This document shows, in pieces, positions 14,914 to 64,000 of a stretch of 64,000 bases of DNA. The DNA is taken from positions 480,001-544,000 of the forward strand of contig CP060223.1 of the NCBI GenBank assembly GCA_023898465.1. The letters run 5' to 3'. Source of the stretch: Candidatus Nomurabacteria bacterium (GTDB lineage Bacteria > Patescibacteriota > Patescibacteriia > HK-STAS-PATE-3). The position numbers were made by a program, and so were the translations under genes. The notes below the pieces were generated by a model. The model made no database searches, was not told where the DNA came from, and saw nothing but the letters and a program-made list of their open reading frames with translations. How positions within the stretch are numbered: position 1 is the first letter of the stretch; each line of letters begins with the position of its first letter.

Positions 14914-14987
14914 TGGCTCGGGAGCAGGGACTCGAACCCCGGTTACTAGGGCCAGAACCTAGCGTCCTACCACTAGACGACTCCCGA
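14914..14987 (-). tRNA. tRNA-Gln (anticodon CUG), CCA encoded
   Basis: Manual fold gives a 7-bp acceptor stem (TCGGGAG/CTCCCGA), a D-arm with AGTGGTAG loop, an anticodon stem CTAGG/CCTAG with loop TTCTGGC, a T-arm CGGGG-TTCGAGT-CCCTG, discriminator G and CCA. Confidence 0.8.
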
Positions 14988-23713: not shown

Positions 23714-23719
23714 TGTTCA

Positions 23720-24142: not shown

Positions 24143-24187
24143 TTTCCTTTCCTCCGTAGCTAGAGTGCTTCCAATTGTGAACAGAGC

Positions 24188-24268: not shown

Positions 24269-24316
24269 GCGAATACTATTGCCCATGCACTCCTCTACTT
24301 GCTACACTTCCCCTAC

Positions 24317-36104: not shown

Positions 36105-36573
36105 ATTTTCCTGGATTTTTTTGAAAAGCCTTTTTACATCCACTCGCGCAAAAATAATATTTCTTCCCCTGATATTGCATGGCCGCGCCGGCCGTACTCG
36201 GAGAGACACGCATGTGACATACAGGGTCATGCACGATTGGCATAAGATCCTTCATTGTCCTACTGAATTCATCAGGTTTTTTATCGCCCTGTTGAACAAC
36301 AATAATGTCGCGAATAAGTTGACTCGCCTTAGCAAAATTCGGATGAGCTAAATGGTATCGAAGACGCTTTCCCAGCCGATGATAACTTACCGCTCCAGCA
36401 TCACGAAGTATTTTAAGATGCTGACTGAGATTTGCTTGTGGCAAACCAAGCATGTCTTGCATTTCCTCAACCGTTGCTGGGCCTTCTTTTAGTAAATGTA
36501 AAACCTCCAAACGGCGCGGATGTGCAAGCGCTTTTAAAAGCTTGGCGTGGAGTTTAAAAACTTGTTCATACAT
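36094..36573 (-). CDS. ArsR/SmtB-family metalloregulator fused to a C-terminal YHS/TRASH metal-binding domain
   Basis: HTH ([16 protein letters not shown]...[24 protein letters not shown]) and a C-terminal CHMRV...YYFCASGC domain. The start is at ATG 36573 and the 3' end overlaps the copA start by 11 nt. Confidence 0.7.
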
Positions 36574-42232: not shown

Positions 42233-42736
42233 CTAGAACTGTTGTGCTGAACGCATCCGATGAAGCGTGCTACACACCAGTCCAATACCAGAGCGACGCT
42301 CTACACAGAACTGATACACCCGTTGCGCCGCCATGAGCTTTTCATAGAGCGCCTGACCATGCTTAGTGGCTAGTTCGTTTCGCATCTCCCGGTCTAGACC
42401 TTGGTAATACGAACCAAGCAGCAGATAGCGCACTAGAAGCCACCCCAGTAACCCGGAGCTGAGCAGCATCGCTGTTAAAGCACCGGGCAGAGTCAGATAC
42501 CCGAGCAAATCCTCCAGTCTTGCCCAGTAGTACACTGCAACAAGCTCAAATAGCAGAAACGCTAGCGTGGCTATAGTTGACCCTATCCGGATAAACAGGC
42601 GCCACCTTTTCACTCTCTCGCACAACTCTAGAATCTCTTCTTCTTGAACACTGAGTTGCGCGTAGAGGAAATTCGACATATGCACCTCCCTCTTGCATAC
42701 CCAAAAGCAGTCTACACCCGCTGCACTGCAGGTCAA
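42233..42736 (-). CDS. membrane protein, function unknown (last gene of the heliorhodopsin operon)
   Basis: 2-3 TM helices. A 9-nt gap to the HeR gene. The likely start is at the internal MSNFLYAQL. Confidence 0.45.
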   Translation of the reverse strand: MTCSAAGVDCFWVCKREVHMSNFLYAQLSVQEEEILELCERVKRWRLFIRIGSTIATLAFLLFELVAVYYWARLEDLLGYLTLPGALTAMLLSSGLLGWLLVRYLLLGSYYQGLDREMRNELATKHGQALYEKLMAAQRVYQFCVERRSGIGLVCSTLHRMRSAQQF

Positions 42737-42745
42737 GCATTCAGG

Positions 42746-43528
42746 TTAAGGCCGGAGAGTACCGGAAAACATTTGCCAGGCTAGAGCTGATTTCGCCACC
42801 AGGGACAAAATCATATAGGCCTTTTCACCGTAGAGATAGTCCTGCCATTTCCCTATCTTCTTATACTGCAGGACCATGTTAATCGCGAAGATGTTAAAGG
42901 TGACAAAGATGGTGGCCACAATGAAATAAACAAAGGTAGGAATCTCCACTCCGGTCGACTGTACCGCGCCAATGAAGAAAGCAACAATGACCAGCCAGGG
43001 AATTAAGCCAGCCAAAACTCCTATCCAGTACGAAAGCCAATTCGTATGCTTGGTCGTCTGATTATGTACTTCCATCATCAAGCCCATGAGATTCATAATC
43101 GCATTCAAGGCAAACAGCGAAATGAGTAGCCAAAGATCGTACACACCACAAAGCATGGCAATAACTACAATCATAACTGACGAGGATAAGGCATACTCAG
43201 CCCAACGCAGCTTGTTGATGCCCTTTTTCAAATTCTCCTCATACCATTCCCGCAAAGGTCCGGCTAGAAGGAAATGCGCAAAAGCAGAAAGGAAGAGAAA
43301 GACCGCTACGGTGGGGCCTAAGCGTAAGTCAAACAAATGCTCAGGAAGTGGAGCTACACCAAAAACTGGATTATTTGGATCGATTTTCAGGTATGAAGTA
43401 ACAACTGGTAAAGATGAATTATTGCTTATCAAAACCATAATGACGCCTTGCACGAAGTGAAGGGCGGCCATTGACCAATTCCAGACTTGTAGTTTTTTTA
43501 ACTGCTCTTTTTGACTACGCATTTTCAT
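42746..43528 (-). CDS. heliorhodopsin (inverted-topology microbial rhodopsin)
   Basis: Strong family signatures: RWAEYALSSSVMIVVIAML (TM3 with counterion Glu), YMILSLVAKSALAWQMFSGTL (TM7 with Schiff-base Lys), and conserved His in LHFVQG and AFAHFLLAG. Confidence 0.85.
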   Translation of the reverse strand: MKMRSQKEQLKKLQVWNWSMAALHFVQGVIMVLISNNSSLPVVTSYLKIDPNNPVFGVAPLPEHLFDLRLGPTVAVFLFLSAFAHFLLAGPLREWYEENLKKGINKLRWAEYALSSSVMIVVIAMLCGVYDLWLLISLFALNAIMNLMGLMMEVHNQTTKHTNWLSYWIGVLAGLIPWLVIVAFFIGAVQSTGVEIPTFVYFIVATIFVTFNIFAINMVLQYKKIGKWQDYLYGEKAYMILSLVAKSALAWQMFSGTLRP

Positions 43529-46258: not shown

Positions 46259-46541
46259 TATAGAGCACTCGCCACCACCATCGCCCTAAGAAATACCCAC
46301 CAATCGCTCCAAGTAGTAACAAGCCAATTTGAATGTATGGTGGAAGCGCACATCCCCAGGTCCAATGTATAACCTGTCCATTTTTCTCAGCCCAGCTTAA
46401 ATACCACTGCTCAATTCCTAAATGTAACAGCAAACTTAACAGCACGCCGAACACAGTAGCGCTAATGAGATAAAGTGCATGTTTGAACGGGGTTGCTTTA
46501 AGTGGTCCGCGATGAAACATATTTAGAAAAGATTTAACCAA
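46203..46541 (-). CDS. small membrane protein
   Basis: 112 aa with 2 TM helices. The 3' end overlaps the next ORF. Confidence 0.3.
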   Translation of the reverse strand: MVKSFLNMFHRGPLKATPFKHALYLISATVFGVLLSLLLHLGIEQWYLSWAEKNGQVIHWTWGCALPPYIQIGLLLLGAIGGYFLGRWWWRVLYIEQRWVRQASTGDYEEKS

Positions 46542-49500
46542 CCAAAGAGGTCTTGCACTGATCCTAGGATTACCTGCACAACTGTTTGTTCTTGCTGTGG
46601 AGTAAGAATAGTCAGAGGCTCAGACACCGAGGTCTGTCCACTGGAATCCGTGCTCTCCACCTTGAACTGATACACCGAACCTGGCTCAAAACTTGTCAAA
46701 ACGACAACGTGCCGTTTCGTATAGTTTGTATCAAGTGGCGTGGCTTCGGTAATTGCTTCATCAGCACTGGCAACACCCTGTCGATAGTACACTCGACTAG
46801 TGGCTGGCTCATTTGTTAGCCAGCTGATGATGGTTTGGACTTTAGTATCACGGCCCGGGGAAAGGGCTGAGTCAGTTTGAATCTGCGAGATAAGCGGAGG
46901 CGCATTCTCATCGCCGGTCACAAAGGAGTCAAGCGTCTTGGAAACCGTATTGCCATCTGCATCAACACTTACCAACTCAATTGCGTAAGTCACTCCAGAC
47001 TCAAAACTATCTACAGTCACCTGATGAATAATGGTTTGCGTATCATCTCGAACACTGCTTAACTCATCGACCGCTTTGATGTTATTGCGATAAGGTATCA
47101 CCCGTACAGTGGCATCTGCATCACGAGTGGTGGTCCAGCGGAATACCGCTTCCTCGCTTGATATTTTTTCGACGGCATAATTTTGAATATCAAAAACCTG
47201 CGGATCAGTAGTGAAACTAAAGTCTGCACTTTGCGTTGTCTGGCTAATCTTTGTTCGACTACGCACTTGGTAATGATAGGTTGTATCAGGCTGTAAGTTG
47301 TAAACCGTAACTGAATGGGTCGTGCTATAGGTTTCCGCATCACCCACCACCTGAGTATACTGTTGTGCCAGAGCAAAGTCAGCATCTGAAGCGTAAGCTA
47401 CCAGGGCATTAGAGTCTTTATCAGTTCTCCATTGGATAGTGACTGAAGTTGGACCAACATCCACGCGAGGCTCTCCACTAATAAGCGGAGTAGGAATTAT
47501 TTTTGATAACTCCTCGATGAGTTGATACTGCTCTTCTAAACTTAGCTCTAAAATATCAATGCTAACATTGCCATAGAGATCATTCAGTAGATCAAGATTT
47601 TCTTCAAGGATATTCTTAATCTCATCAGGATTGTTTCTATCGATTGGTGCAGTGCCAGACGTAGTGAATGTTTTATCGCCGGTAATCGACGTGTTGCCGC
47701 TTGCATCAACGGAAATAACTCGATAATGATAAGTAGACCCACTGTTTAATTGTTGCAGAGTAAGGCTATGACTGGTGGCATAAGTCCAGTCACCATAAAT
47801 AGTTCCGTAAACTGTGGTAAGGCCAAATTGAATAAAGCTATTCGCTTCCTCACTTGTAGTCCAACGCACAGTGGCAGCGCTATCGCTAATGTTTACCACC
47901 TCGATGCCGGTTATGCTTGGATTTGTCTCATCCTTACTACCATCAATAGCATCTTGTTCACGTTGCTCTACATCTGATTCCTCAGACAGCATTTCTAAAG
48001 TGCTAAAGGATTTTTCTGTACTCGTTGTGCTATTACCTGAAGCATCAACTGACGAAACAGTGTAATAGTATGTCGTCTTAGGGCTGAGATTACTTAAGGT
48101 AACTAAATGGGTTAGGTTGAGACTTTCGTCTAAGCTCGTTGTAACCGTATAATTTCCCGAGCTTGTCCCATAACGCAATTGAGATGTTGCTCGCTCGTTA
48201 CTTAGCCAGGTAACTACTGCTCGAGTGTCAATGACCGGATCGGCCTGTATATTTGATAAGACTGGTGGCACTGTATCACTAGTCGTAACAAAGGAGTAAT
48301 ATTCACCACCGTTGTTATCAAAAGCTACGCCTGAGGTTACATAGTAGTAATACAGGGTACCGTTTGTCAGTCCTGATAACTTCACTAAATGATTCATCGT
48401 TGGTGGAGTATCCAGACCAACCTCAATGGCATCACTCATATCTGAATTCACTGAATAGAAGACGTGTGAATCAGACTCTACATCAGTTAACCAGCTTATA
48501 CTCGCTTCAGTATTACTCACCTCTTGCGTACTTACATTAGAAATTGCTGGACCACTTAAGGTTGTTACCGTATATCCATCACCTCCGTCAGAGTCAGTTG
48601 CCGAGTTCCCACCCGGATCCTCTGAACGAACTCTGAAATAGTACGTTGTCGAGGGATCGAGTCCGGTAAGTATGACTCGGTGAACACCAACACCTGCTTC
48701 ATTATCCATCAGAGTTGCAACACCGATAGTCGTACCAAAATCAGCTGGGGTATCTGAATATCCAATAGTAGAATCAGAGAGCTCATCTGTCTCCCAGGTA
48801 ATAGTGACCGTCTGAGTACCTATCTGACTGGTTGCTACATTTGAAATAGTTGGAGGCGTACTATCAGTACCTCCTTGTCCGTTGGCAGACTCTGAGACAA
48901 CCGCCGAGTAGTAAGAAAAATTTCCATCGCTATCTTCGCTTGATATCTTATACCAATAGCTTGTATCTGCTGTAACACTTTGATCGAGATAATAGTTAAT
49001 TGCTCTATCGCTTATGTGGCTAATCGTACTATAGCTCGTGCCGTCTGTTGAACGATACACCGTGTATTCGCTAAAGCCTGGGTCGGGCAGTGCTACTGCC
49101 TTCCAAGAAATAAAGAGTTGATAGGCATCAGCTTCTACATTACTAATATCACGAATAATCACTGTTGTTGGTGTTTCTGGTGTTACCGCTGATGCACTAC
49201 TGCTGGTATTTTTGTACGCATCACGGAAACGGACATAGACTGTATCTGGATCAGTAACCAAGGAAATAGTTGAGGAAGAGGCATAGCTTACCCACGTCGC
49301 GCCAACAAAGTCACTCCGCAAAGATACTTGCATTTCAAGGCTGCTATCATCAGAGCCGGAGAGATCGAGAGAAGCGGGGTCAGTACGTGCGTCCACCACA
49401 ATTGCCGGACTACCGAGGACTGGGTCTTTTACATCAAGAGTAAAGGCGCTTGTTTCATCGCTGGCTGTATTATTTGCTAATTCCCCATCATCAATAGTGA

Positions 49501-51943
49501 CTCTAATTAAGGTAGTGGTGCTATAGGTCCCATCGATTTGGGCTTTTGCGTTCCAGCTTGCACTATATTCAGTGTAATTAGTTTCATCGATGTCTTTAGG
49601 ATCGGTTGCCCCGGATGATAGCCCTGTGGTCACGTTAAACCAATCAAGGCCATTATTTAACGAATATTCAAAACTCGGGGTCACCTGTCCTGAGCCAGAG
49701 CTGCCATCTGGGTCACGAACTGAGTAAGTGATAAGCACGCTACCATCACTGCTTTGCTGGGTAGCTGTTGGTGCGCCCTCAAACTCAGGCGGTGCATTTA
49801 CCACATACACCATAGTTGCATCATACAGTGTTGGCGCCGCATAACCGTTTGAAGACTCTAGCCATACCTTATACTGCATCCACTGATCATTCGTACTATC
49901 GGTATGAGTGCTATTCACCGTCTCTCCGCCACTTGGATCAGTATAATAATCCCCTGTGCCGCTAGGACCAAGCCAGCTTGACCAAGTACCAGGAGATCCT
50001 GAGCTATCTGGAGCGGTCCGAATCTGAAATTTGATTTCAGTACCACTCGGTAGATTTTCTGTCCAGCGCATACCCCCCAGCGCATTTAATGCATCGGTGC
50101 TATCAAAAGCAGATGAGGTCAGTGTTTGTGATGATGGGTATTGTTGATAACCGATGCTAATGTCTTCAAAGTGCGGCGAAGCACTAGTATCACTCGTCGA
50201 CATACTCACTCGATATTGAATGTATTGCTCACCATCCGTGACGCAAGCGTCAGAACTAATATCATTCCCGCTCGTTAAATTACCGCATCCGGACCAATCA
50301 GGTGCTCCACTCATGCCTGAATCATTTGAGGTACGAGCCTGAACAGTTAAAGTGGTGCTTCCTGGAACGGTAGCATTCCAACTTAAGGTATCAAAAACAG
50401 TGTTTCCGTTTGTATTAAGTGCCGCTGAGGTGAAAGTGCCCGGTGTAAGATAGGTTGAAGGAATATTAATGGCTAATCCGCTTGCACCATCAGCCATATA
50501 GCTAGTGGTGCCTGATTGCAACACATGTTTTCCGAGCGCGGTAAGTGCGGTGCTGCTCACTTCTGATGGAGAGGTTGGATTGCTCACATCAAGCACTTTT
50601 AAGCTTGCGTCATCAATAATGTACAAGTCTGTGCCTACCGCCTCTACTGAACGCACATCAGTCAAACCTGTACTATAAGCCCCTATGCGAACCGGGACAG
50701 ATGGATTACTAATATCAATAATAGTGACACCAACCGAGGAGTCTGCGGTATATGCGTAGCTACCTACTATAGCTACATCATATCCTTCATCAAAGGCTTC
50801 AAAATCATACGAATATCCTCGTACACCGCTAATAGAACCCGGGGTTCCAATATTGTATATGTTTAAACTCGCAGCCTCTCCGTAATCATCGTACCCAACC
50901 CCATATAAGTAATCACCATCAGCAACCAGGCGATACGGTCTTGCTTGATATGAAACGTTTGACGCACTGAGACTTGGGTTTACCGGATCCGCCAAAGACA
51001 ACACATAAATGCGCATCACACGACAAAAACCTGAACAACCTCCTACTGCAAAACCGGCATACAAATATGATCCACGAAGGTATACGCTGTACACCTCTCC
51101 CGTGCTTGTATATTGCCCTACTAAGCTCGGCGCATTTTTGTTGCTAATATCCACTACACGAACATCACCGGTATAGTCAGCAAGATACGCATAGTTGCCT
51201 GAAACGGTAACGTCTCGCGCGTCGTTTGTGTCGACACTACCAAGGGGCTGAGGTGATAAAGGATTCGAAATATCAAAAATTTTCAAACCATCAACGCCAT
51301 CGGCAATATAGGCATAATTACCGTCGACAAAAACTCCTTTTGCGTCAGTGGTGTCGGAATAGGCAGTGCCACCACTTGATTGGGCCAACTCAACATAGGC
51401 CCCACTTCCCGATCCCGTGACTTGAGTGCTACTCGTGGTACCTGTACCAAAATCAGCATCACTCGTTTGCACGAGAGACTGCGACGTGGTAGTTAAGCTT
51501 AGTTCCGTGCCAATGTTAAGGTTTGCATCAGCTGCTGAGTACTCATTCCAACCTGTCTGATCACCTGGATGCTGAGCAGTATTTGCAGTTTGACCACCGC
51601 TCCAGTCTGTCTGCACCCAATAATAAGTGGCCGCTCGAGAGGAACCAATAGTGAGAGCCCAAAATGTCACGCTAATGAGTAAAACAGACGAAATAATTGC
51701 TCCTGCGTAACGTCGAGAACTTTTAAAAGGCTTTATTACCTTTTGCGCTACCTTTTTATTACGTTTTAAGGAAATGGCAAGTACCCATCCAAAATATAAT
51801 GGGATAAACGCGGTATAAGGACGCTGCTTCTTGCGTTTCGCGCGAAGAAGCGTTGTTTTTTTCTGTAAGCTGGCTGATAAAGAAAATATTCCGAAACCAG
51901 CTCTTTTTGGGGGGCTTTTTTTCGCCGACCTTTTTTTGGTCAC
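46523..51943 (-). CDS. giant (about 1800 aa) membrane-anchored surface protein with LVIVD beta-propeller repeats and multiple fibronectin-III-like domains
   Basis: N-terminal signal anchor, and repeats of the YAYIADGVDGLKIFDISNP / VRVVDISN / VTIIDISNP type (LVIVD family). Many units of about 90 aa follow (VTITWETD..., ASISWLTD..., AVVTWLSN..., ATVRWTTS...) typical of FN3 or purple-acid-phosphatase-N-like domains. The extreme N-terminus (poly-K from A/C homopolymers) may not be translated. Confidence 0.75.
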   Translation of the reverse strand: MTKKRSAKKSPPKRAGFGIFSLSASLQKKTTLLRAKRKKQRPYTAFIPLYFGWVLAISLKRNKKVAQKVIKPFKSSRRYAGAIISSVLLISVTFWALTIGSSRAATYYWVQTDWSGGQTANTAQHPGDQTGWNEYSAADANLNIGTELSLTTTSQSLVQTSDADFGTGTTSSTQVTGSGSGAYVELAQSSGGTAYSDTTDAKGVFVDGNYAYIADGVDGLKIFDISNPLSPQPLGSVDTNDARDVTVSGNYAYLADYTGDVRVVDISNKNAPSLVGQYTSTGEVYSVYLRGSYLYAGFAVGGCSGFCRVMRIYVLSLADPVNPSLSASNVSYQARPYRLVADGDYLYGVGYDDYGEAASLNIYNIGTPGSISGVRGYSYDFEAFDEGYDVAIVGSYAYTADSSVGVTIIDISNPSVPVRIGAYSTGLTDVRSVEAVGTDLYIIDDASLKVLDVSNPTSPSEVSSTALTALGKHVLQSGTTSYMADGASGLAINIPSTYLTPGTFTSAALNTNGNTVFDTLSWNATVPGSTTLTVQARTSNDSGMSGAPDWSGCGNLTSGNDISSDACVTDGEQYIQYRVSMSTSDTSASPHFEDISIGYQQYPSSQTLTSSAFDSTDALNALGGMRWTENLPSGTEIKFQIRTAPDSSGSPGTWSSWLGPSGTGDYYTDPSGGETVNSTHTDSTNDQWMQYKVWLESSNGYAAPTLYDATMVYVVNAPPEFEGAPTATQQSSDGSVLITYSVRDPDGSSGSGQVTPSFEYSLNNGLDWFNVTTGLSSGATDPKDIDETNYTEYSASWNAKAQIDGTYSTTTLIRVTIDDGELANNTASDETSAFTLDVKDPVLGSPAIVVDARTDPASLDLSGSDDSSLEMQVSLRSDFVGATWVSYASSSTISLVTDPDTVYVRFRDAYKNTSSSASAVTPETPTTVIIRDISNVEADAYQLFISWKAVALPDPGFSEYTVYRSTDGTSYSTISHISDRAINYYLDQSVTADTSYWYKISSEDSDGNFSYYSAVVSESANGQGGTDSTPPTISNVATSQIGTQTVTITWETDELSDSTIGYSDTPADFGTTIGVATLMDNEAGVGVHRVILTGLDPSTTYYFRVRSEDPGGNSATDSDGGDGYTVTTLSGPAISNVSTQEVSNTEASISWLTDVESDSHVFYSVNSDMSDAIEVGLDTPPTMNHLVKLSGLTNGTLYYYYVTSGVAFDNNGGEYYSFVTTSDTVPPVLSNIQADPVIDTRAVVTWLSNERATSQLRYGTSSGNYTVTTSLDESLNLTHLVTLSNLSPKTTYYYTVSSVDASGNSTTSTEKSFSTLEMLSEESDVEQREQDAIDGSKDETNPSITGIEVVNISDSAATVRWTTSEEANSFIQFGLTTVYGTIYGDWTYATSHSLTLQQLNSGSTYHYRVISVDASGNTSITGDKTFTTSGTAPIDRNNPDEIKNILEENLDLLNDLYGNVSIDILELSLEEQYQLIEELSKIIPTPLISGEPRVDVGPTSVTIQWRTDKDSNALVAYASDADFALAQQYTQVVGDAETYSTTHSVTVYNLQPDTTYHYQVRSRTKISQTTQSADFSFTTDPQVFDIQNYAVEKISSEEAVFRWTTTRDADATVRVIPYRNNIKAVDELSSVRDDTQTIIHQVTVDSFESGVTYAIELVSVDADGNTVSKTLDSFVTGDENAPPLISQIQTDSALSPGRDTKVQTIISWLTNEPATSRVYYRQGVASADEAITEATPLDTNYTKRHVVVLTSFEPGSVYQFKVESTDSSGQTSVSEPLTILTPQQEQTVVQVILGSVQDLFGWLNLF

Positions 51944-54597: not shown

Positions 54598-55716
54598 TTA
54601 TCTAGTTTTTGCCTGCCAAATAGGCATTTGCGCAAGTTCCGCCATTGCTTCACTTGCCTCAATAATTCCCCCTCCAATAAGCTCATCCCCTTGATAAAAC
54701 ACGATGAACTGTCCTGGCGTGACTGCACGCTGTGCTGTAGTGAAAGAAACGCGCAAGTGCCCATCCTGCTTCTCAATCACGCAATCCTGGGCTGGCTGAC
54801 GGTAACGAATGCGAGCCTGGCAATGATAAGGAAATTCTGGCTCTCTCATTGTCCAACTTGGCTCAATCATGCTCAGCCAGGTAGAGTAAAGCAAAGGGTG
54901 CTTATTCCCCTGCACGGCAATAAGACGATTATGCTCGGTATCTTTTACTGCCACATAGTACGGAATACCCGTGCCGCTCACCCCTAGGCCTTCTCGCTGG
55001 CCAATGGTGGCAAATATACTTCCCTGGTGCTGACCAATAACCTTACCCTCTGGAGTTATCACCTCGCCGGGCTGCTTGTGCAAGCGTGTTTGTAAAAATT
55101 CAGCGATATTCACTGGACCAACAAAGCAGATACCCTGGCTGTCTTTTTTCTCCGCTGTGCGCAGTCCGGCTTCTCGCGCCATCTTTCGCACTTCAGGTTT
55201 TGTATACTCACCGATTGGAAAAAACGCGTAGGGCAAACTGCGCTGATCTAAACTCATGAGAAAATACGACTGATCTTTGTTGCTATCTAAACCCTGGAGA
55301 AGATGAGACCCATCTGCATCATGACGCACTCGGGCATAATGTCCGGTTGCAACTGCATCATATCCTTCGGCAAGCGCCCGTTGTAAAAATAATCCAAACT
55401 TAATCTCCTTATTACAAAGAATATCAGGATTTGGCGTGCGACCTGCAGCGTATTCTGCAAAGAAGATATCCATAACCCGTTGACGATACTCTTCTTCAAA
55501 ATCCCAGACTTCGAAAGGAATGCCTAACTGGGTAGCAACCCGGACCGCATCTTTGCGATCAGCTTCTTCTGAGCAGTATGGCGAAATCTTGGACTTGGTC
55601 CAGTTTTTCATAAATACGCCCGTGATGTCATATCCTTGGTCTCGCAATAAAAGTGCGGCAACCGAAGAATCAACCCCACCGGACATACCTACGGCGATTT
55701 TTTTCTTCTTCGTCAT
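54598..55716 (-). CDS. mnmA: tRNA-specific 2-thiouridylase
   Basis: PP-loop KIAVGMSGGVDSSVAA and catalytic-Cys contexts. The start is at ATG 55716. Confidence 0.9.
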   Translation of the reverse strand: MTKKKKIAVGMSGGVDSSVAALLLRDQGYDITGVFMKNWTKSKISPYCSEEADRKDAVRVATQLGIPFEVWDFEEEYRQRVMDIFFAEYAAGRTPNPDILCNKEIKFGLFLQRALAEGYDAVATGHYARVRHDADGSHLLQGLDSNKDQSYFLMSLDQRSLPYAFFPIGEYTKPEVRKMAREAGLRTAEKKDSQGICFVGPVNIAEFLQTRLHKQPGEVITPEGKVIGQHQGSIFATIGQREGLGVSGTGIPYYVAVKDTEHNRLIAVQGNKHPLLYSTWLSMIEPSWTMREPEFPYHCQARIRYRQPAQDCVIEKQDGHLRVSFTTAQRAVTPGQFIVFYQGDELIGGGIIEASEAMAELAQMPIWQAKTR

Positions 55717-55759
55717 AGCGACGCAATGTACCACATGCCGAAGCCTGATGCAAGCATCT

Positions 55760-57404: not shown

Positions 57405-58886
57405 ATGCAACGCGCCTCCGGAGTCTTACTGCCGGTCTCTTCACTACCTAGTCCCTATGGCATTGGTGATTTTGGGCCATCTGCGTATACCTATGTAGAT
57501 TGGCTGCAGGAAGCAGGTCAGAGATACTGGACCATCCTGCCTCTCCTTATCCCTGACTCGCTGGGGTCACCCTTTAATACCGTTTCCGCCTTTGCGCTGA
57601 ATTGGCAACTTATTAGCCCGGAACTTCTGGTACAACAGAAACTCCTTGATGCAAAAACTGCTCGTGCGCTACAGAGTGATGCAAAACGAGTTCGCCATCG
57701 TGAGGTAGCGCAAACAAAACGCCGAATTTTGCACCAAGCTTGGAAATATTTCCTTCTTCATGCAAGCGCTCAGCAACGGCGTGACTTTGCTGCTTTTCAA
57801 AAGCAAGAAAAAGACTGGCTAGACGATTTTGCGCTTTATATGGCAATCAAAGAAACGCAGCGAGGTCGACCCTGGTTTCGTTGGATCAACGTCTATCGAG
57901 AACGAGATTTTAAAGCACTGCAAAAGTTTCGCGAGAAACAAAGCGATAGGATACAGCAGCACGCTTTTGGCCAATGGGTTGCTACTCAACAATGGCAGTC
58001 ATTAAAAGACTATGCCAATAAAAAAGGTGTGCGTATTTTTGGCGATCTCCCTTTCGCCGTAGCGCATGACAGCGTTGATGTTTGGAGTCATCCAGAACTT
58101 TTTTACATAAGCCCGCAGGGTAAATCCCTCCAAGTACTTGGAGTTCCACCTGATAGTTTTTCTAAAACCGGACAACTGTGGGGTTCACCGGCTTATAAGT
58201 GGAAAAAACACGCAGCTACTCACTTCCAGTGGTGGGTGCAACGCTTTGCTAAAGCAAGTCAGCTCTATGACATGCTCCGGCTCGATCATTTCCGTGGTTA
58301 CGCAGCGAACTGGGTTATTCCTGGAAAAGCAAAAACAGCCAAGGGTGGACACTGGGAAAAAGTGCCTGGTAAAAAACTCTTCCGCGCAATTCAGAAAAAG
58401 GCTCAACACCTACACTGTGTGGCCGAAGACCTGGGTGTCATAACACCGGATGTGATTGCGCTAAGGAATGCTCTTCAATTTCCCGGCATGCGCATACTTG
58501 AATTTGGCCTAAGTGATGGCAAGCGAAGTGTGCACCATCCTGATAATTATCCAATAAACTGTGTAGCCTATACCGGCACCCACGACCTCCCTCCACTCAA
58601 ACAGTGGTTCCACAATGCAAAGCGCACAAGTAAAATGAATGCGACACGCTATGGGCAGAGCGACACCCAACACATTGGGCAAAATCTCATCCACGCCCTG
58701 CTATGGAACAAAGCGAAAATAGTAATCATACAAATGCAAGACCTGCTTGCGCTTGGCCAGGGCAGCCGTATAAACACCCCAGCCACCAAGCGAAATAACT
58801 GGAGCTGGAGATTGACTTCGACCTCTCTCAGCAAAAAAACAGCGCGAGAGCTAAAAAGTCTGCTCAAAGAAACGCGTCGGATCTAG
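57405..58886 (+). CDS. malQ: 4-alpha-glucanotransferase (amylomaltase, GH77)
   Basis: GVLLPVSSLPSPYGIGDFG N-terminal signature and GH77 catalytic regions. Confidence 0.85.
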   Translation: MQRASGVLLPVSSLPSPYGIGDFGPSAYTYVDWLQEAGQRYWTILPLLIPDSLGSPFNTVSAFALNWQLISPELLVQQKLLDAKTARALQSDAKRVRHREVAQTKRRILHQAWKYFLLHASAQQRRDFAAFQKQEKDWLDDFALYMAIKETQRGRPWFRWINVYRERDFKALQKFREKQSDRIQQHAFGQWVATQQWQSLKDYANKKGVRIFGDLPFAVAHDSVDVWSHPELFYISPQGKSLQVLGVPPDSFSKTGQLWGSPAYKWKKHAATHFQWWVQRFAKASQLYDMLRLDHFRGYAANWVIPGKAKTAKGGHWEKVPGKKLFRAIQKKAQHLHCVAEDLGVITPDVIALRNALQFPGMRILEFGLSDGKRSVHHPDNYPINCVAYTGTHDLPPLKQWFHNAKRTSKMNATRYGQSDTQHIGQNLIHALLWNKAKIVIIQMQDLLALGQGSRINTPATKRNNWSWRLTSTSLSKKTARELKSLLKETRRI

Positions 58887-58963
58887 TCTTTACTTTTCTT
58901 GTAGAATGCGATAAGTATTGTACAGATTTTGGATAGGTCGCACATTAAAATGGAGGTAATCGG

Positions 58964-59563
58964 ATGTCGCTTATTCAGGCTCGTGTACACGAGCAAATAG
59001 CCTTCAGCAATCAAGCTGATTTCACACGACTACTGCAGCGCTATCTCGTCGCGGACCAAATCCAGCCGGGGCATCAGAACGGTACAGCTGAAGTCTCGGA
59101 AAGGCCGCGGGTGGTTCGTTTTCCTGGATGCCTGGTAGTGACGGCCGCCTATCGAAACCTCGCAGTTGGAGGGATCGACCGGTCAGACCTGCACAGACTG
59201 CATCACTTGCACGCATCACTTCGCGCCGAGCTGTATGAACCTGATGAGCTGGCCCGGGTTGGATTCTGGTCGCAGACTGATCCGGCTGCCGTCGTCACTC
59301 TCACAGCCCTGGGTGGCGGGATTCAAGAGGTTCGCTTCTTCGAATCCGAATGGCAAAGGTGCGATCAAATTCCACTCTTCTTCCAACGACTCCGTGAAGA
59401 GCATGGCGATGACGCAAATATCATCGTGCTAGAAGCGGCAGCTGCGAAGGAGATGCTCGAACTGGGCATCACGCCAAAGAGCTTGCAGTGTTTCTTGGTC
59501 CAGATCGATGCCCACCGGGTTTCTGTCGTCGACAACTTCATGCCAACTTTCGTGCCCAAGTAG
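58964..59563 (+). CDS. hypothetical protein (GC-rich, probably acquired)
   Basis: GGAGGT RBS 6 nt upstream of the start, no motif, and marked GC elevation relative to the flanks. Confidence 0.45.
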   Translation: MSLIQARVHEQIAFSNQADFTRLLQRYLVADQIQPGHQNGTAEVSERPRVVRFPGCLVVTAAYRNLAVGGIDRSDLHRLHHLHASLRAELYEPDELARVGFWSQTDPAAVVTLTALGGGIQEVRFFESEWQRCDQIPLFFQRLREEHGDDANIIVLEAAAAKEMLELGITPKSLQCFLVQIDAHRVSVVDNFMPTFVPK

Positions 59564-59575
59564 GAGGATCTCCCA

Positions 59576-59607
59576 GGCCCTGAGGTAAACACTTCAGGGC
59601 CTTTTTT
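59576..59607 (+). terminator. rho-independent terminator
   Basis: GGCCCTGA-loop-TCAGGGCC followed by TTTTTT. Confidence 0.55.
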
Positions 59608-59621
59608 ATTTTACGTATGAC

Positions 59622-59649
59622 TTGACAAAAGCCCTCTTTTTAGTATACT
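59622..59649 (+). promoter_or_regulatory. sigma70-like promoter (TTGACA-16-TATACT)
   Basis: TTGACAaaagccctctttttagTATACT, with a GAGGAGG RBS before the GTG start at 59719. Confidence 0.45.
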
Positions 59650-59718
59650 GGCCGGTCTAGAAATAGTAGTAGCTATCGAACGGAACGTATATTCACAAAG
59701 GGAAGAGGAGGCTCAAAC

Positions 59719-61161
59719 GTGGTGCAGAAGACTGCCACGGCTTGGGTCGTGGCATTCATTCTTCTGTTCTGCCACGCTCAAGCCTCGACTGCTACAGTCA
59801 CTCATTTCGTTTTTGGCATGCGCGGCAACGCGAATGTCGACGTGTGTGACAACGGCGACCTTCGCCAGTTTCACACCACGCCGGCAGGTGGACTCGTATT
59901 CACCAGTATGGGAGGTGGCGAATTCGAGATCGGTCTCGAGGGTCAAGTCAGCTGCAGTCGTGATGGAGGAGGTGGAGAAAACCTCATCCAAAACGGCGCT
60001 TTTGACCAGGGCACTTGCTCAGAATGGGAATTGGAGGACCCCAATGGACGCGCTGCAGCATCCTGTAGCAATGAGGGTCGCGTCACCGTGCAGAGTAGCG
60101 GACAATACTACGAAGTCCAGCTCAAGCAATCGATCCCGCTGATCAATGGTCAATGGTATCGTCTGAGCTTCGACGGCGACAGTAGCGTTCGCCACATCAT
60201 ACCGGTCGGAATTATCAATCCGGCCAGCTATGATTCGATCGGCCTCTGGGCTGATTGCGATCTGCACACCGATCGACGCAGCTTCGAATACCTTTTTCGC
60301 TCCAGTGAGACCATCTCTGATGCACGCTTCAGTTTCTACATTGGTGAACATCCGGCGACCTATCGTTTCGACAACGTAACGATAGTGCCGGTTGATCCCA
60401 GTGCAGACTGTTTCCGTGCTCCAGGTGAACTCATTGTGAACGGAGGGTTCGAGTGCGATCAGGTCTGCCAGCACGCTTGGCGATTCGAGGATCACTTTGG
60501 ACCCGGCTATGCTCTGTGCGATGCTGTGTCCCATAGTGGTGCTCACTCAGCCAAGCTACGACCAGCTCAAGCGGGTCAGTACTACGAAACGCAGTATCAG
60601 CAGCTTGTCACTGTCCAACAGGGACAACGCTATGAATTGCGTTTCTACGCCCGGACCAATCGTGACCCGCAGACTATTGTGGTCGAGCTGGTTGACCCAC
60701 AGAGCTTTGCGAACCGCGGACTCGTCTTTGGTCCCGTGCTCAACAGTAGCTGGACTGAGGTGCGACAAAGCTTCACTGCCAATCGTAGTGGTGTTGCTCG
60801 TCTCGGTTTTGCGGTTGGTAACTGGGACCCTGGTACTCCGGTCTGGATCGACGACGTCAGCTTGCGTCCGGTACTTAGCGTCGGAGGCGGTGACGCACAA
60901 AGCGCGACACCATCAGCCCTGGCCACCCAAGCGAACGCTGCAGTCTTTGCTCTAGAGCAACGAGCTGATGTTCGTATCAACGTCTTTGACGTGGGAGGAC
61001 GTCAAATTGCTGGCGAGTCTCGCTCCTTGTCTGCCGGGACTCATACCTACATCTGGGACGGATTGCTGCACAGCGGTGTCCGTGCTCCCAGCGGCATTTA
61101 CTTTGTCCAGGTCACCGGCGCTAGTGTCCATGCCATCAAACGCATTGTAATGGTGCGTTAG
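59719..61161 (+). CDS. secreted protein with two CBM4_9-like carbohydrate-binding modules and a C-terminal T9SS-type (Por/FlgD-Ig-like) sorting domain; GC-rich
   Basis: GTG start and a signal peptide. There are two modules of about 150 aa starting NGAFDQG... / NGGFECD... with a conserved Trp/Tyr pattern. The C-terminal 70 aa (RINVFDVGGRQIA...GIYFVQV...KRIVMVR) match the sorting-domain pattern. Confidence 0.6.
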   Translation: MVQKTATAWVVAFILLFCHAQASTATVTHFVFGMRGNANVDVCDNGDLRQFHTTPAGGLVFTSMGGGEFEIGLEGQVSCSRDGGGGENLIQNGAFDQGTCSEWELEDPNGRAAASCSNEGRVTVQSSGQYYEVQLKQSIPLINGQWYRLSFDGDSSVRHIIPVGIINPASYDSIGLWADCDLHTDRRSFEYLFRSSETISDARFSFYIGEHPATYRFDNVTIVPVDPSADCFRAPGELIVNGGFECDQVCQHAWRFEDHFGPGYALCDAVSHSGAHSAKLRPAQAGQYYETQYQQLVTVQQGQRYELRFYARTNRDPQTIVVELVDPQSFANRGLVFGPVLNSSWTEVRQSFTANRSGVARLGFAVGNWDPGTPVWIDDVSLRPVLSVGGGDAQSATPSALATQANAAVFALEQRADVRINVFDVGGRQIAGESRSLSAGTHTYIWDGLLHSGVRAPSGIYFVQVTGASVHAIKRIVMVR

Positions 61162-61194
61162 AGGCTGGAACCATGCGTCAACACATCTACAACA

Positions 61195-61230
61195 GCGCCT
61201 GAAGAGATTTACTCTCTCAGGCGCTTTTTT
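61195..61230 (+). terminator. rho-independent terminator
   Basis: GCGCCTGA-loop-TCAGGCGC followed by TTTTTT. Confidence 0.55.
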
Positions 61231-61287
61231 GTATATGAAAAGCCGCCAAAGTTCCGAAGAAGCTTGGCGGCGAGAGACGAGGAGGGA

Positions 61288-61611
61288 TCAGGCGCCCTCA
61301 GTACTGACCTCCTCCTTCCCGCAAAGATGCAGGATGAATGACAATAGCGTGAGGAACCCGAGGATCCCGCCTGCAATAAGCAGGAACCAGCGGCCGAGGT
61401 CTCCGAAGAAACCCCGATAGACTCCTTCGATGAAGGGACGATGACCCGTGCCTTCAAACACGAGTACCGTGGGGAATCCTCCCCAAAACATGAGGAGGGA
61501 GATGATCGCAAGAGTCGCCACCGACACACCCATGGCAAAGGGCGACAGAATGATCGCCAGTCCCATGTGCTTTCCGACCAGCTTGAGCAAACCCGTAAAC
61601 AAGCGTGCCAT
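61288..61611 (-). CDS. small membrane protein (3 TM), GC-rich
   Basis: The start is at ATG 61611 (MARLFTG). A hairpin GCCGCCAA...TTGGCGGC plus T-rich tract lies downstream on the minus strand. Confidence 0.4.
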   Translation of the reverse strand: MARLFTGLLKLVGKHMGLAIILSPFAMGVSVATLAIISLLMFWGGFPTVLVFEGTGHRPFIEGVYRGFFGDLGRWFLLIAGGILGFLTLLSFILHLCGKEEVSTEGA

Positions 61612-61721
61612 AATAGTATTCCTCGTATGTACCGACCTCAAAAGGTCGAGTTTGAGTCAATGTACAAAACGTATCTGGGCAATATAATAGCACATTTCGT
61701 TTATTTTGTCAATATATAAAG

Positions 61722-62996
61722 CTAAAATCTTGCTAATCTTGGCGAATTATCATGCAATACTGTGCTTGCTGCAATAGTTTTACGGAAGCCCACTCGCTCT
61801 TGCGCATGCTTCCGTACATTCCACATTGCTCCCCAACGCAACATATACGCACCATAACGCTCATGCACTCGATCAATCACTGCTTCAACAGCATCGTGAT
61901 TTACCTCGGGCCAAATCTTGAGCTGACCGCTCCTTGGGCGTAAGCGAAAAGTGCCTATGCCTAAAAAAGTAAGGAAGCGTCCATGAACTTCTGGTGCTAA
62001 CATATCCCAGGCCAATTGAAAAAGCTTTCGCCCTTCGCGTAGCCCATCACCTAACTTACGCTGTCCACCGTGTGAAGCGCCTTCAGCCATACGGGTATAT
62101 TCACTTGGCACACTGCGAGCCATTGCCCAGATGCCATGGGCTTCTAAGTTCTTCTGGCGCAATTCCCGAGCAGTCTTTTCGCAAAGCTTCATCAACACCG
62201 CTCGGTGAAAAGTGTGATCGCGCGTACGTTCACGCAAGACATGCGTATGTCCAATTGACTTCGGGTCTCGCTCCTCCTGCACACCGCCTAATTCAATCCC
62301 TTGCACATTTGCCCAGAGCTCATAGCCACGCACTCCGAGAGCCTCCATTAGATTAGTAACTGGATAGCGATAAAGATCCTCGAGAGTAAAAATACCTAAA
62401 GCATGCAGGCGACGTTCATAGCCCTTATTAATCCCCCAAGCCTCAGTCACTGGTCGGCCGGCCAAGTAGCTTGGCACCTGGCGCCGCTCAAGCACAACCG
62501 TCCCACCCTTTGGCGCAATATCAGAGGCGAACTTAGCTAACCAGCGAGTTGGTGCTACCCCAATGGAACACCGCAGCCACTCGCCCACCTCGCGAAAAAT
62601 ACGCTGACGAAAAGCCTCACCTATCTTCGCCACTTCATCAAGTGAATGGGCGTCACCAGTGAAATCAACAAAAGCCTCGTCAATTGAGTAAGGCTCGATA
62701 TCCTCAGAGTACTCAGCCATGATACGAAAAATTGCTTCAGTGGTGGAATGATACTTTGGTGGATCAACCTCTACCACCTTCAGGGCAGGATAAATGTGCA
62801 AACCATCCTTCACCCGCATACCAGTCACAATGCCTAACGCTTTTGCTTCTCGTGAAGTGGCAATCATGCAGCCTCCCGGCGCCATGGTGGCGGCAATGCC
62901 GACCGGCCGACCTCGCAACTTCGGATTCGCCTGCTGCTCGACTGAGGCGAAATACGAGTTCATATCGAAATGGAGAATGAGGCGAGAATGAGACAT
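61722..62996 (-). CDS. dinB: Y-family DNA polymerase IV
   Basis: ILHFDMNSYFASVE...SIDEAFVDFTG catalytic motifs and a 424-aa length. Confidence 0.85.
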   Translation of the reverse strand: MSHSRLILHFDMNSYFASVEQQANPKLRGRPVGIAATMAPGGCMIATSREAKALGIVTGMRVKDGLHIYPALKVVEVDPPKYHSTTEAIFRIMAEYSEDIEPYSIDEAFVDFTGDAHSLDEVAKIGEAFRQRIFREVGEWLRCSIGVAPTRWLAKFASDIAPKGGTVVLERRQVPSYLAGRPVTEAWGINKGYERRLHALGIFTLEDLYRYPVTNLMEALGVRGYELWANVQGIELGGVQEERDPKSIGHTHVLRERTRDHTFHRAVLMKLCEKTARELRQKNLEAHGIWAMARSVPSEYTRMAEGASHGGQRKLGDGLREGRKLFQLAWDMLAPEVHGRFLTFLGIGTFRLRPRSGQLKIWPEVNHDAVEAVIDRVHERYGAYMLRWGAMWNVRKHAQERVGFRKTIAASTVLHDNSPRLARF

Positions 62997-63136
62997 ACGA
63001 TTACTTAACTAGATTGACAAAACAAGCTTATGGGTGGTAAGTAAGAGGACTGTCTGATGCCCCTGAATCGGGTGTCTGTGAGCACTTACTCACATCCGTG
63101 GTGGAGACAGTGTTCCTTACACAGGAGGTAAAACCT

Positions 63137-63655
63137 ATGAGTCGCAAGAGTGCTCACCAAACGAGGACTCCATCAGACATCAACGAAGAATCACCCTTTC
63201 TCAGAACGCTCTACTATTCCTTGATGAAGTGGAGTACGGTCCCGAGGAAAGAGATCGTGCCCGAACTACAGGACGAAATGAGACTGCGAGCTGAGACAAT
63301 GGGTCTCAGCGTCACTCTCTCCAGCGGCGTTCAGGGACCGAGCTACACCGACGTCGTGCTTGGGCTTTACGTCCTGCTGACCCGTAGCTACGTCGAGAGG
63401 TCTATCCAGAACATCATCTGGGGAGTCCTGGGTCACTGCACAAATCATCAGTTCGCCAAGTTCATCCGTTTGACCAACGCGCGGCACAACCCTAATCCCG
63501 AGAGCAGGACAAGGGCGATGAGGGCGCTCTATGAAATCGCTTCATTGGGCCATAGTCGCTGGCTCAATGTTGGGAAGTCCTGGCAACGGGGCGCGAGGTG
63601 GCGCATGAACGAGCTGATCAACTCTGGTCGCTTCGAGGCCCCAATCTATTGGTAA
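63137..63655 (+). CDS. hypothetical protein (GC-rich), divergent from dinB
   Basis: AGGAGG RBS 7 nt upstream of ATG 63137 (MSRKSAHQ). No motif. Confidence 0.4.
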   Translation: MSRKSAHQTRTPSDINEESPFLRTLYYSLMKWSTVPRKEIVPELQDEMRLRAETMGLSVTLSSGVQGPSYTDVVLGLYVLLTRSYVERSIQNIIWGVLGHCTNHQFAKFIRLTNARHNPNPESRTRAMRALYEIASLGHSRWLNVGKSWQRGARWRMNELINSGRFEAPIYW

Positions 63656-63698
63656 GGAAGCTACATAGCCCAGACACTCCGGTGTGCTGGGCTTTTTT

Positions 63699-63884
63699 CT
63701 ACTTCACAAACTCCACCTTTTCACACTCACTGCAATACATAGGCTTCATCGCATGCGTCACAAAGGAAGGTAAAGCACGCATAGGCTTAGCGCATTGACT
63801 GCAGCGCTTTGTGCCCCGCTCCTGTTTTGTTTCTCGAATCGTACGCGGTGTCATATATTTTCGTTTGCCCTCCATAGACACCAT
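63699..63884 (-). CDS. possible small zinc-ribbon protein (CxxC...CxxC)
   Basis: CSQCAKPM...CSECEKVEF. Coding status is uncertain. Confidence 0.25.
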   Translation of the reverse strand: MVSMEGKRKYMTPRTIRETKQERGTKRCSQCAKPMRALPSFVTHAMKPMYCSECEKVEFVK

Positions 63885-64000
63885 TCCAAGCGTATGGTGT
63901 CAAAACAAAGATCAAAAGTGTTGTCCTGGCTTGAAACAGCAAAATGATAATAAAGCTTATTGCCATCTCGGCGCCGATAGGTCAGATTCACCCGCTCCAC

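Follow-up and report, generated by a model that had tools for sequence, protein, structure and literature searches.

A putative type IX secretion-type C-terminal domain on a tandem carbohydrate-binding protein in a Candidatus Nomurabacteria genome

The secretion system of type IX (T9SS) is described as specific to the diderm Fibrobacteres-Chlorobi-Bacteroidetes (FCB) superphylum (PMC12398890, PMC9170169). In sequence analysis, the C-terminal tails of its cargo proteins are used to flag T9SS cargo and, by implication, the FCB-group diderms that bear a T9SS. Here we describe a protein of 480 amino acids (aa) with a homologous tail, encoded in a GC-rich block of a 64,000-nucleotide stretch of DNA ("the window"; positions 480,001 to 544,000 of contig CP060223.1, assembly GCA_023898465.1) from a Candidatus Nomurabacteria bacterium, a member of the candidate phyla radiation (CPR). 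An earlier note on this stretch had placed the block at 58960-61640, had seen in it a secreted protein with two carbohydrate-binding modules (CBMs) and a T9SS-type sorting domain, and had offered two options for this domain, simply an Ig-like fold or a signal for an uncharacterised sorting route.

T9SS type A C-terminal domains (TIGR04183/PF18962; P. gingivalis RgpB, 5hfs and 5ag8, and environmental FCB-group "FlgD_ig-type" tails) occupy the extreme C-terminus of multidomain proteins that bear a Sec signal, form a beta-sandwich of about 76 aa and 6-7 strands after a flexible linker, and end in WDG...SG(I/V)YF...K-hhhh-(K/R)-COOH. The 480-aa protein shares all of this, the sandwich being known from a model, and among its relatives are M23 peptidases and GH16 glucanases that carry CBMs, as is typical of T9SS cargo. 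It differs from these domains in scoring below the cut-offs of both tail models, in lacking the PNPF motif that 120/120 close members have, and in its host, a CPR bacterium that, as a monoderm, is not expected to have a T9SS and to which the defining function, PorV/PorU-dependent translocation across an outer membrane and attachment to anionic lipopolysaccharide (A-LPS), should not apply. The Ig-like domain of FlgD (PF13860; 7eh9, 7bhq, 3osv, 3c12) is the sole profile passed by the tail region and gives the best PDB matches to its central strands; in contrast to FlgD, the domain is terminal here and not embedded, and its final strand matches only T9SS cargo tails. With the CBM4/CBM9/CBM22 family (PF02018) the protein shares, by profile and by fold, two tandem beta-jelly-roll modules, the compared examples being CBM22-1-CBM22-2 of Paenibacillus Xyn10C (4xup), a Cellulomonas CBM4 (1gui) and Rhodothermus CBM4-2 (2y64). 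Characterised members of CBM_4_9 bind xylan, beta-glucan or cellulose. The CBM-bearing relatives mostly carry an enzyme, whereas the 480-aa protein has no attached glycoside hydrolase or peptidase.

In the reading that we favour, with a probability of roughly 60%, the gene encodes an imported, lectin-like tandem CBM4/22 protein which is exported by the Sec pathway and which keeps its former T9SS tail as a functional Ig-like module. By homology and architecture the protein is of the T9SS-cargo type, and it fails two defining features of such cargo, the curated score (narrowly) and the N-terminal tail motif; a third, a T9SS in the host, is almost certainly lacking. As a protein with CBM_4_9 and FlgD_ig domains it is bona fide. 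The protein has already been deposited under a generic annotation, and its family, its fold and horizontal transfer into CPR bacteria are all known. What is mildly new is that the genome of a monoderm CPR bacterium contains, on good support, a T9SS-derived tail on which purifying selection acts; our literature search returned no relevant report of T9SS tails in CPR/Patescibacteria. The gene, with its expression signals and the parts of its product, is laid out as follows (GC3, GC content at third codon positions; pLDDT, per-residue confidence of the structure model).

59622-59649, plus strand: putative sigma-70-like promoter TTGACA-16-TATACT upstream of the CBM gene, matching the consensus at 11/12 positions.
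59707-59713, plus strand: Shine-Dalgarno sequence GAGGAGG of the CBM gene.
59719-61161, plus strand: gene of the putatively secreted 480-aa tandem-CBM protein with a T9SS-derived C-terminal domain (USN54044.1; GC3 0.565).
59719-59784, plus strand: signal-peptide-like N-terminus, aa 1-22, MVQKTATAWVVAFILLFCHAQA followed by S (hydropathy, and AxA motif by inspection).
59785-59973, plus strand: N-terminal region, aa 23-85, beta-rich, pLDDT 56-68, with no family match and conserved with the relative P0005.
59974-60402, plus strand: CBM_4_9 module 1, aa ~86-228 (Pfam; pLDDT 87-97).
60403-60873, plus strand: CBM_4_9 module 2, aa ~229-385 (best Pfam stretch 237-366; pLDDT 75-95).
60874-60930, plus strand: Gly/Ala/Ser-rich disordered linker, aa 386-404 (pLDDT < 50 for 388-404).
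60931-61158, plus strand: C-terminal beta-sandwich, aa 405-480, ending ...SGIYFVQVTGASVHAIKRIVMVR-COOH, a homolog of FlgD_ig and T9SS type A tails without the PNPF motif.

The double-CBM protein and its two small neighbours, a 199-aa protein and a membrane protein, exist as open reading frames (ORFs) just as the earlier note had listed them, and Pfam matched CBM_4_9 (PF02018) in two stretches of the former (E 1.5e-16, 61.4 bits against a gathering score of 25.9). The two modules are internal duplicates, as local alignment of the halves and a DNA repeat (D1, GQYYE) revealed, and neither Pfam nor NCBIfam found a catalytic domain in the protein. A HMMER scan of 1.84 billion representatives returned 3319 relatives, many of which share the CBM pair, the tail or both. 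Only one, P0005 (486 aa, 42% identity, residues 5-486 aligned), is full-length, and it has kept a full-length tail. CBM_4_9 was found in 40 of 43 close relatives and a strong Por_Secre_tail in 10, and catalytic partners were M23 peptidases (6 proteins) and GH16/KRE6-type glucanases (7 proteins); by its domain content the 480-aa protein is a version of these CBM-bearing relatives without a catalytic domain. The NCBI record USN54044.1 begins at an internal GTG and comprises 470 aa ("carbohydrate binding domain-containing protein"). The longer, 480-aa start is backed by the position of the Shine-Dalgarno sequence and by an N-terminus that is conserved with P0005. This N-terminus combines K4, a hydrophobic core at residues 9-18 and a cleavage-like site between AQA and S (inspection and hydropathy), and signal-peptide-like N-termini are also present in the relatives P0005 and P0275. 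We infer that the protein is secreted in a Sec-type manner and that its signal peptide is cleaved after AQA.

An AlphaFold model calculated with a 50-sequence alignment reached a mean pLDDT of 81.9; a single-sequence model (pLDDT 40) was discarded. The model consists of a signal-peptide helix, a low-confidence beta-rich region (25-85), two jelly rolls (pLDDT ~90-97 over the first and ~75-95 over the second), a disordered segment at 388-404 and a C-terminal sandwich of 6-7 strands (residues 405-478, pLDDT 87-94). In Foldseek, the jelly rolls matched the CBM22 tandem 4xup, CBM4 1gui (TMt 0.75), CBM4-2 2y64 (TMt 0.72) and 4bj0, with an identity to characterised CBMs of only 13-23%. The model thus lets us propose that the mature protein may bind a glycan via two CBM4/22-like modules. 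With the full model as query, no tail-specific match appeared among the top 50 Foldseek results, which were dominated by CBMs, and we therefore compared the tail by sequence profile.

Among the curated profiles, the tail passed FlgD_ig (PF13860; 29.6 bits against a gathering score of 27, residues 405-468), narrowly missed TIGR04183 (T9SS type A sorting domain, NCBIfam; 20.5 bits, cut-off 23) and fell below the threshold of PF18962 (Por_Secre_tail, Pfam; 13.9 bits, cut-off 27). The earlier note's description of the last ~70 aa as a Por/FlgD-Ig sorting domain is thus borne out by FlgD_ig and not by the two T9SS models, and its T9SS-type label is tenable as a statement of homology and fails, narrowly, as one of profile membership: nine of the ten relatives tested pass TIGR04183 with 26-41 bits, P0005 with 27.9 against 23. 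A tail profile (A1), built from the twelve tails closest to the query tail, brought back 2164 proteins from the database; of the best 120, almost all carry precomputed PF18962 and PF13860 matches. Those of the top 120 that have been named by NCBI are each a "T9SS type A sorting domain-containing protein", and with one exception they belong to Zixibacteria, Gemmatimonadetes, Krumholzibacteria, Latescibacteria, Eisenbacteria and Bacteroidetes. The taxonomic placing of the tail matches, which the earlier note had suggested as a check, points to FCB-group phyla. The one exception, P0320, is labelled as a Thermoplasmata archaeon; either it has been misbinned or it is one more T9SS-type tail in an unexpected place.

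In the PDB, the central strands of A1 best match the FlgD Ig-like domain (7eh9, 7bhq, 3osv; E 4e-10 to 3e-9), and the FlgD matches, which overall span E 4e-10 to 2e-7, stop short of the last strand. PorU (6za2) and PorZ (5m11) match most of the domain, and for the final ~22 residues the sole matches are tails of T9SS cargo, namely those of RgpB (5hfs/7pq4), endonuclease I (8glk_D) and mirolase (8qb1). The query tail retains WDG...SGIYF...IKRIVMVR-COOH, that is, the GxY strand and a basic/hydrophobic last strand ending in K/R, the final residue of 117/120 top family members. It lacks the PNP/NPF motif found at the domain start in all 120 of them; the PNPF position reads TPSALA in the query tail and IESKLP in P0005. 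Judged from these sequence comparisons, the tail is a homolog of the FCB-type T9SS type A tail that has diverged and become slightly eroded, with a homology to T9SS tails that is established only transitively. A FlgD hook-capping protein was considered as well and ruled out: the protein has no FlgD N-terminal or tudor-like part, the FlgD equivalogs of NCBIfam score 11-23 bits with the Ig part alone (cut-offs 230-383), and no flagellar genes were seen in the window.

The host is a Candidatus Nomurabacteria metagenome-assembled genome (MAG) of ~1.08 Mb and belongs to the Parcubacteria/Patescibacteria (CPR). Three proteins of the block have been deposited in this same MAG (USN54043.1, USN54044.1 and USN54045.1; H6760_02635-02645), and the window content is CPR-like, with PMT_2 glycosyltransferases, TSP3 repeats, DUF5667 beside an extracytoplasmic-function (ECF) sigma factor and genes that resemble type IV secretion system (T4SS) coupling proteins. 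The mnmA gene (54598-55734) is of normal composition, and its closest proteins, besides the identical one of the MAG itself, are <=64% identical. A heliorhodopsin gene lies at 42746-43528 on the minus strand (Pfam E 2e-98, GC3 0.513). Heliorhodopsins are reported to be restricted to monoderm prokaryotes, with Patescibacteria among their carriers (PMC8612252; 10.1101/356287). Since the host is a CPR bacterium with a gene of this monoderm-only family, a T9SS is not expected in it. We lengthened the window by 7.1 kb with an identical, independent Logan contig (L003) to an extended sequence of 71 kb, among whose ~45 annotated ORFs no genes for a T9SS (PorK/L/M/N, Sov/SprA, PorU/V) or an outer membrane were seen and no other ORF bears such a tail. 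The genome context without T9SS genes, on which the earlier note had relied, accordingly holds for 71 kb, and the identity of the host is the stronger argument. The host's own giant surface proteins carry N-terminal anchors.

Selection on the tail can be read from a sister lineage. In an unrelated sample (SRR17818317), contig L010 matches window positions 58153-61291 collinearly at 85% nucleotide identity and runs from inside malQ via the 199-aa gene and the CBM gene to dinB (L010 1-6413 was compared with window 58153-64000). By Nei-Gojobori estimates of synonymous (dS) and nonsynonymous (dN) divergence, the CBM genes have diverged little (94.8% aa identity, dS 0.33, dN/dS 0.081), as has dinB (94.6%, dS 0.47, dN/dS 0.065); divergence is greater for the malQ C-terminus (86%, dS 0.99, dN/dS 0.086) and greatest for the 199-aa gene (64%, dS 1.47, dN/dS 0.16). 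Within the 76 codons of the tail, 9 synonymous and 2 nonsynonymous changes have accumulated (dN/dS 0.068), and the neutral probability of <=2 nonsynonymous changes among these 11 is P = 1.4e-4 (binomial). The tail and the whole CBM gene are therefore under purifying selection, at least over the sampled interval, and the tail is maintained and not decaying.

That the CBM gene was horizontally acquired by an ancestor of this Candidatus Nomurabacteria lineage is supported, because its GC3 and k-mers are foreign, its family is extremely rare, the tail otherwise occurs in FCB-group diderms and the host is a CPR bacterium. The earlier note's claim of horizontally acquired DNA holds on these four grounds, with the amendment that the block is not a single unit and that the acquisition is not recent, because the junction between malQ and the island is shared with the sister lineage and malQ has reached a dS of ~1. 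A higher GC content, the T9SS-type tail and the cargo-like relatives together point to a putative donor among the higher-GC diderm lineages that use T9SS tails. The P0005 gene has 60.6% GC (GC3 0.71) and resides on environmental metagenome contigs of 58% GC; one of these bears the sample label "ANAN16", which we take to denote an aquifer study. There is no synteny between the window locus and the P0005 contigs, and the small membrane protein (107 aa) that follows the CBM gene in the window has no relation to the ORF downstream of P0005. A scan of a metagenome contig collection with an alignment of P0001, P0275 and P0005 as query yielded only distant CBM matches of 23-34% identity and no closer relative.

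A second CPR-labelled case, P0092 (MBU0707197.1; contig L011, 10001-13090), is an M23 peptidoglycan peptidase from a "Patescibacteria group bacterium" MAG. Its CBM-like modules are repeated, its T9SS type A tail is bona fide (TIGR04183, 37.3 bits), and its gene, with 49% GC in a contig of 39% GC, is located beside glycolysis and Pta-AckA genes. As both CPR-labelled cases are compositionally foreign in their own contigs, this suggests sporadic imports and not a CPR-wide system.

The favoured reading can be spelled out as a sequence of steps. An ancestor of the host acquired the gene, as composition, rarity, tail taxonomy and host identity show; the donor would have been a lineage of higher GC whose proteins of this kind are T9SS cargo. 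The gene would now be expressed from its own promoter and ribosome-binding site, and its product would be exported by Sec via the N-terminal signal peptide and cleaved after AQA, as the sequence and its conservation in P0005 suggest. In a cell without an outer membrane, Sec export should be enough for release, so that, from T9SS biology and envelope type, the tail would not be needed for secretion, and the C-terminal domain would no longer be a sorting signal recognised by PorV/PorU. The loss of PNPF fits a release from T9SS-specific constraint. Outside the cell, the protein would bind a glycan through its two CBM4/22-like modules, whose fold is modelled. The tail would form an independently folded Ig-like sandwich on a flexible linker, held by purifying selection, and since it is under such selection the mature protein should benefit from it in some way, the most plausible being better solubility or stability, oligomerisation, or binding to or retention at a surface. 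Candidate surfaces are the cell's own wall or S-layer and the glycan surface of a partner cell. Of the two options in the earlier note, the Ig-like fold is therefore the one we favour: the tail is a lone one in 71 kb, no candidate machinery was found there, the host is monoderm and the N-terminal motif is lost.

Several points weigh against this reading. The tail lies under the curated cut-offs of both T9SS tail models, so that a generic FlgD-type Ig domain would be an equally good description of it, and its top PDB sequence matches are FlgD itself. P0005, the only full-length relative, also lacks the PNPF motif. The absence of a T9SS from the host is strongly expected from taxonomy and envelope and was checked over 71 kb of a ~1.08-Mb genome; the monoderm status of the host in turn rests on the submitter's taxonomy label, a marker gene and the literature. 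The selection signal of the tail is based on 11 substitutions only, and the low dS of the CBM gene (0.33 against ~1 for malQ) suggests a fairly recent exchange of alleles and a shorter span over which selection has been tested.

From this last point follows the strongest competitor, which we nevertheless consider unlikely: the tail might be a neutral relic that has had too little time to decay since its import, or since a second import through recombination between sister lineages, in a protein that works by its CBMs only. Synonymous divergence of the CBM gene and dinB far below that of malQ and the 199-aa gene fits such a recent exchange and a short residence, the PNPF motif has already gone, the TIGR04183 score has fallen below its cut-off, and the disordered linker separates the tail from the CBMs, which would make it dispensable for their fold. 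A decaying relic is, however, hard to reconcile with the ratio of synonymous to nonsynonymous changes in the tail, which has neither indels nor stops and is as constrained as the CBMs, with the retention of a full-length tail in P0005 at 42% identity, and with a model that folds the tail at high confidence.

The tail might, as the earlier note had also considered, still be a sorting or attachment signal, read by an uncharacterised CPR route other than a T9SS and serving as a tether to the wall or S-layer or in delivery to a partner cell. The signal-bearing C-terminal strands (GxY ... K-hhhh-K/R-COOH) are indeed kept under purifying selection, and P0092 with its bona fide tail is a second CPR-labelled protein of this kind. 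We nonetheless regard such a route as improbable: a single ORF in 71 kb bears the tail and no candidate machinery is nearby, none of the named proteins in the top 120 tail-family matches comes from a CPR bacterium, both CPR-labelled cases are foreign in composition (+10% GC here, 49% versus 39% for P0092), and a full-text literature search found no paper reporting such a route. We have thus obtained no positive evidence for this option of the earlier note. In a slightly less improbable but still quite speculative extension of the favoured reading, imported T9SS tails would have been exapted in CPR episymbionts as T9SS-independent tethers, which fix lectins or lysins to the cell's own envelope or to a partner cell; a new sorting route, specific to CPR bacteria, might even recognise the exapted tails of the CBM protein and P0092. 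If true, this would be a first case of a secretion signal that changed its job on crossing from diderms to monoderms.

That the block is an assembly or binning artefact, with higher-GC DNA misjoined to a CPR contig, is hardly credible: although GC steps up abruptly at the malQ stop codon, although position 58877, 10 nt before that codon and the left edge of the block, is the common start of two Logan contigs (L003 and L004; SRR12358675 and SRR12358676), and although the exact MalQ product is not recorded elsewhere (a scan of genome contigs found relatives of only 40% and 29% identity), L003 crosses from the block into host-like genes of 45% GC (T4SS coupling protein-like, DUF8128, sigma factor, SecDF), the unrelated L010 is collinear from malQ to dinB, the block lies within an NCBI contig of 1,082,586 bp, and the k-mer composition is host-like again on both flanks. 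Heterogeneous strains in those samples, or a gap in their coverage at the border of the island, may explain the shared start at 58877. Since L003 links the right flank and L010 the left flank, the block is genuinely embedded in the chromosome of this lineage, and the sequence comparison indicates that it was present before the two lineages diverged to a dS of ~1 at malQ.

A homologous tail on CPR DNA is thereby backed by three independent assemblies, and tail matches in non-FCB MAGs are not necessarily binning errors. A sorting domain can outlast its secretion system as a structural module, and CPR bacteria, whose genomes are very small and which rely on other cells, import and keep surface or glycan-binding proteins from distant diderms. 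Such imports bear on the attachment of CPR bacteria to hosts or substrates; current understanding is not overturned.

The compositional distinctness of the block, as claimed in the earlier note, was confirmed by computation. At 58960-61640 its GC content reaches 0.546; all 2.68-kb windows of the 71-kb sequence average 0.459 (sd 0.027), and no other one is as high. The signal is carried by synonymous positions: GC3 in the 199-aa, CBM and 107-aa genes lies 2.8 to 5.0 standard deviations above a background of 0.418 +/- 0.053 over 45 genes. Tetranucleotide distance to the rest of the window peaks at 58501-61200 (z = 5.1), has host-like values on both sides and is back at z ~0 beyond 65.6 kb. The coordinates 58960-61640 thus capture the peak and not the whole anomaly, which continues more weakly to ~65.5 kb and takes in dinB and several small orphan ORFs. 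These ORFs, with raised GC, reach ~64.7 kb, and GC3 to the right of 61640 is 0.475 in dinB, 0.694 in the ORF at 63137-63655 and 0.556 in a 132-aa ORF just beyond the window end. The neighbours of the CBM gene in the block are the following.

58964-59563, plus strand: 199-aa orphan protein (USN54043.1, H6760_02635; GC3 0.595), with a Shine-Dalgarno sequence GGAGGT 6 nt upstream.
59575-59602, plus strand: intrinsic-terminator-like hairpin 3' of the 199-aa gene, with a 12-bp stem (7 GC pairs), then TTTTTATTTT.
61194-61231, no strand assigned: hairpin AGCGCCTGA ... TCAGGCGCT, then TTTTTTG (inverted repeat I4), between the convergent CBM and membrane genes.
61288-61611, minus strand: 107-aa small membrane protein (USN54045.1, H6760_02645) with 2-3 transmembrane segments; GC3 0.685.
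61712-61684, minus strand: putative sigma-70-like promoter TTGACA-17-TATTAT with extended TG, 11/12, upstream of the membrane gene.
61722-62996, minus strand: dinB, gene of a DinB/Pol IV-type Y-family polymerase (Pfam IMS, NCBIfam Pol IV; GC 0.511).
63137-63655, plus strand: orphan ORF of 172 aa, whose GC3 is the highest in the block.

Neither the 199-aa nor the 107-aa protein has a Pfam, NCBIfam or PHROG match. The former has no hydrophobic segment, signal peptide or transmembrane segment and is probably cytoplasmic. For the latter, the 107-aa ATG start with its GAGGAA Shine-Dalgarno site was preferred to a 117-aa TTG start; the positional counterpart in L010 (3142-3459, minus strand) is 32% identical over 62 aa only, while the neighbouring genes are 95% identical, so that the membrane gene seems to be either very fast-evolving or replaced. 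The earlier note had credited each of the three genes with a clean promoter and terminator. Near-consensus promoters precede the CBM and membrane genes and hairpins are present, the one at 61194-61231 probably being a terminator shared by these two genes; no comparable promoter was found upstream of the 199-aa gene. The total count of promoter- and terminator-like sites in the region does not exceed that of shuffled sequence, and their placement is suggestive of function without amounting to proof. An operon or functional module of the three genes was ruled out, as their promoters and terminators are separate, one of the genes is convergent, and aa identities to L010 differ widely (95%, 64% and ~30%); we found no evidence of a joint function of the two small proteins with the CBM protein.

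Like genomic islands, the block has a sharp compositional discontinuity, orphan genes and a gene content that differs between sister lineages: the 172-aa ORF is present in the window and L003, and L010 has an unrelated spacer of 324 bp in its place. Unlike such islands, it has no integrase, transposase, flanking direct repeats or adjacent tRNA. Profile searches (Pfam, NCBIfam, PHROG) of the island ORFs found no integrase or transposase families, a repeat search around the block found no meaningful att-like or flanking direct repeats, the sole tRNA of the window is at 14914-14987 (Rfam), leaving no tRNA insertion site at the block, and its only phage or plasmid similarity is an 87-bp umuC/dinB match. 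Also unlike an island, the block includes the conserved dinB and is common to lineages that have diverged to a dS of ~1 at the adjacent malQ, which makes it old. The genes differ in their divergence from L010, and the block is therefore an evolutionary mosaic and not one unit; the low dS of the CBM gene and dinB suggests that alleles were later exchanged by recombination between CPR sister lineages over part of it.

The second most atypical stretch of the window, at 46523-51943 on the minus strand (tetranucleotide distance z ~3, GC-normalised correlation z ~-3.5), encodes a giant surface protein of 1806 aa with LVIVD repeats, multiple Pur_ac_phosph_N/fn3 domains and an N-terminal basic/transmembrane anchor. 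Another GC-rich patch (tetranucleotide distance z = 2.8), probably the "island 1" of the earlier note, contains a 221-aa orphan ORF at 23498-24163 on the plus strand (GC3 0.55, no Pfam match), directly upstream of cysS (24299-25693, plus strand, GC3 0.475). A 167-aa orphan ORF downstream of the heliorhodopsin gene (42233-42736, minus strand) has an unusually high GC3 of 0.565. Two genes for T4SS coupling-protein-like (TrwB/VirD4) products, one at 18239-20581 (minus strand) and one just right of the window end (L003 5820-9011, minus strand), both match the unassigned PHROG phrog_5156 (E 2e-66 and 5e-12). The gene to the right of the window end forms a pair with one for a DUF8128 protein, and this pair directly adjoins the GC-rich block. 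At 32830-36230 on the minus strand, a DsbD-like transmembrane protein fused to a cupredoxin domain stands beside a copper-type P1B ATPase (HMA and E1-E2 ATPase), which looks like a compact copper-handling module in a CPR genome of ~1 Mb.

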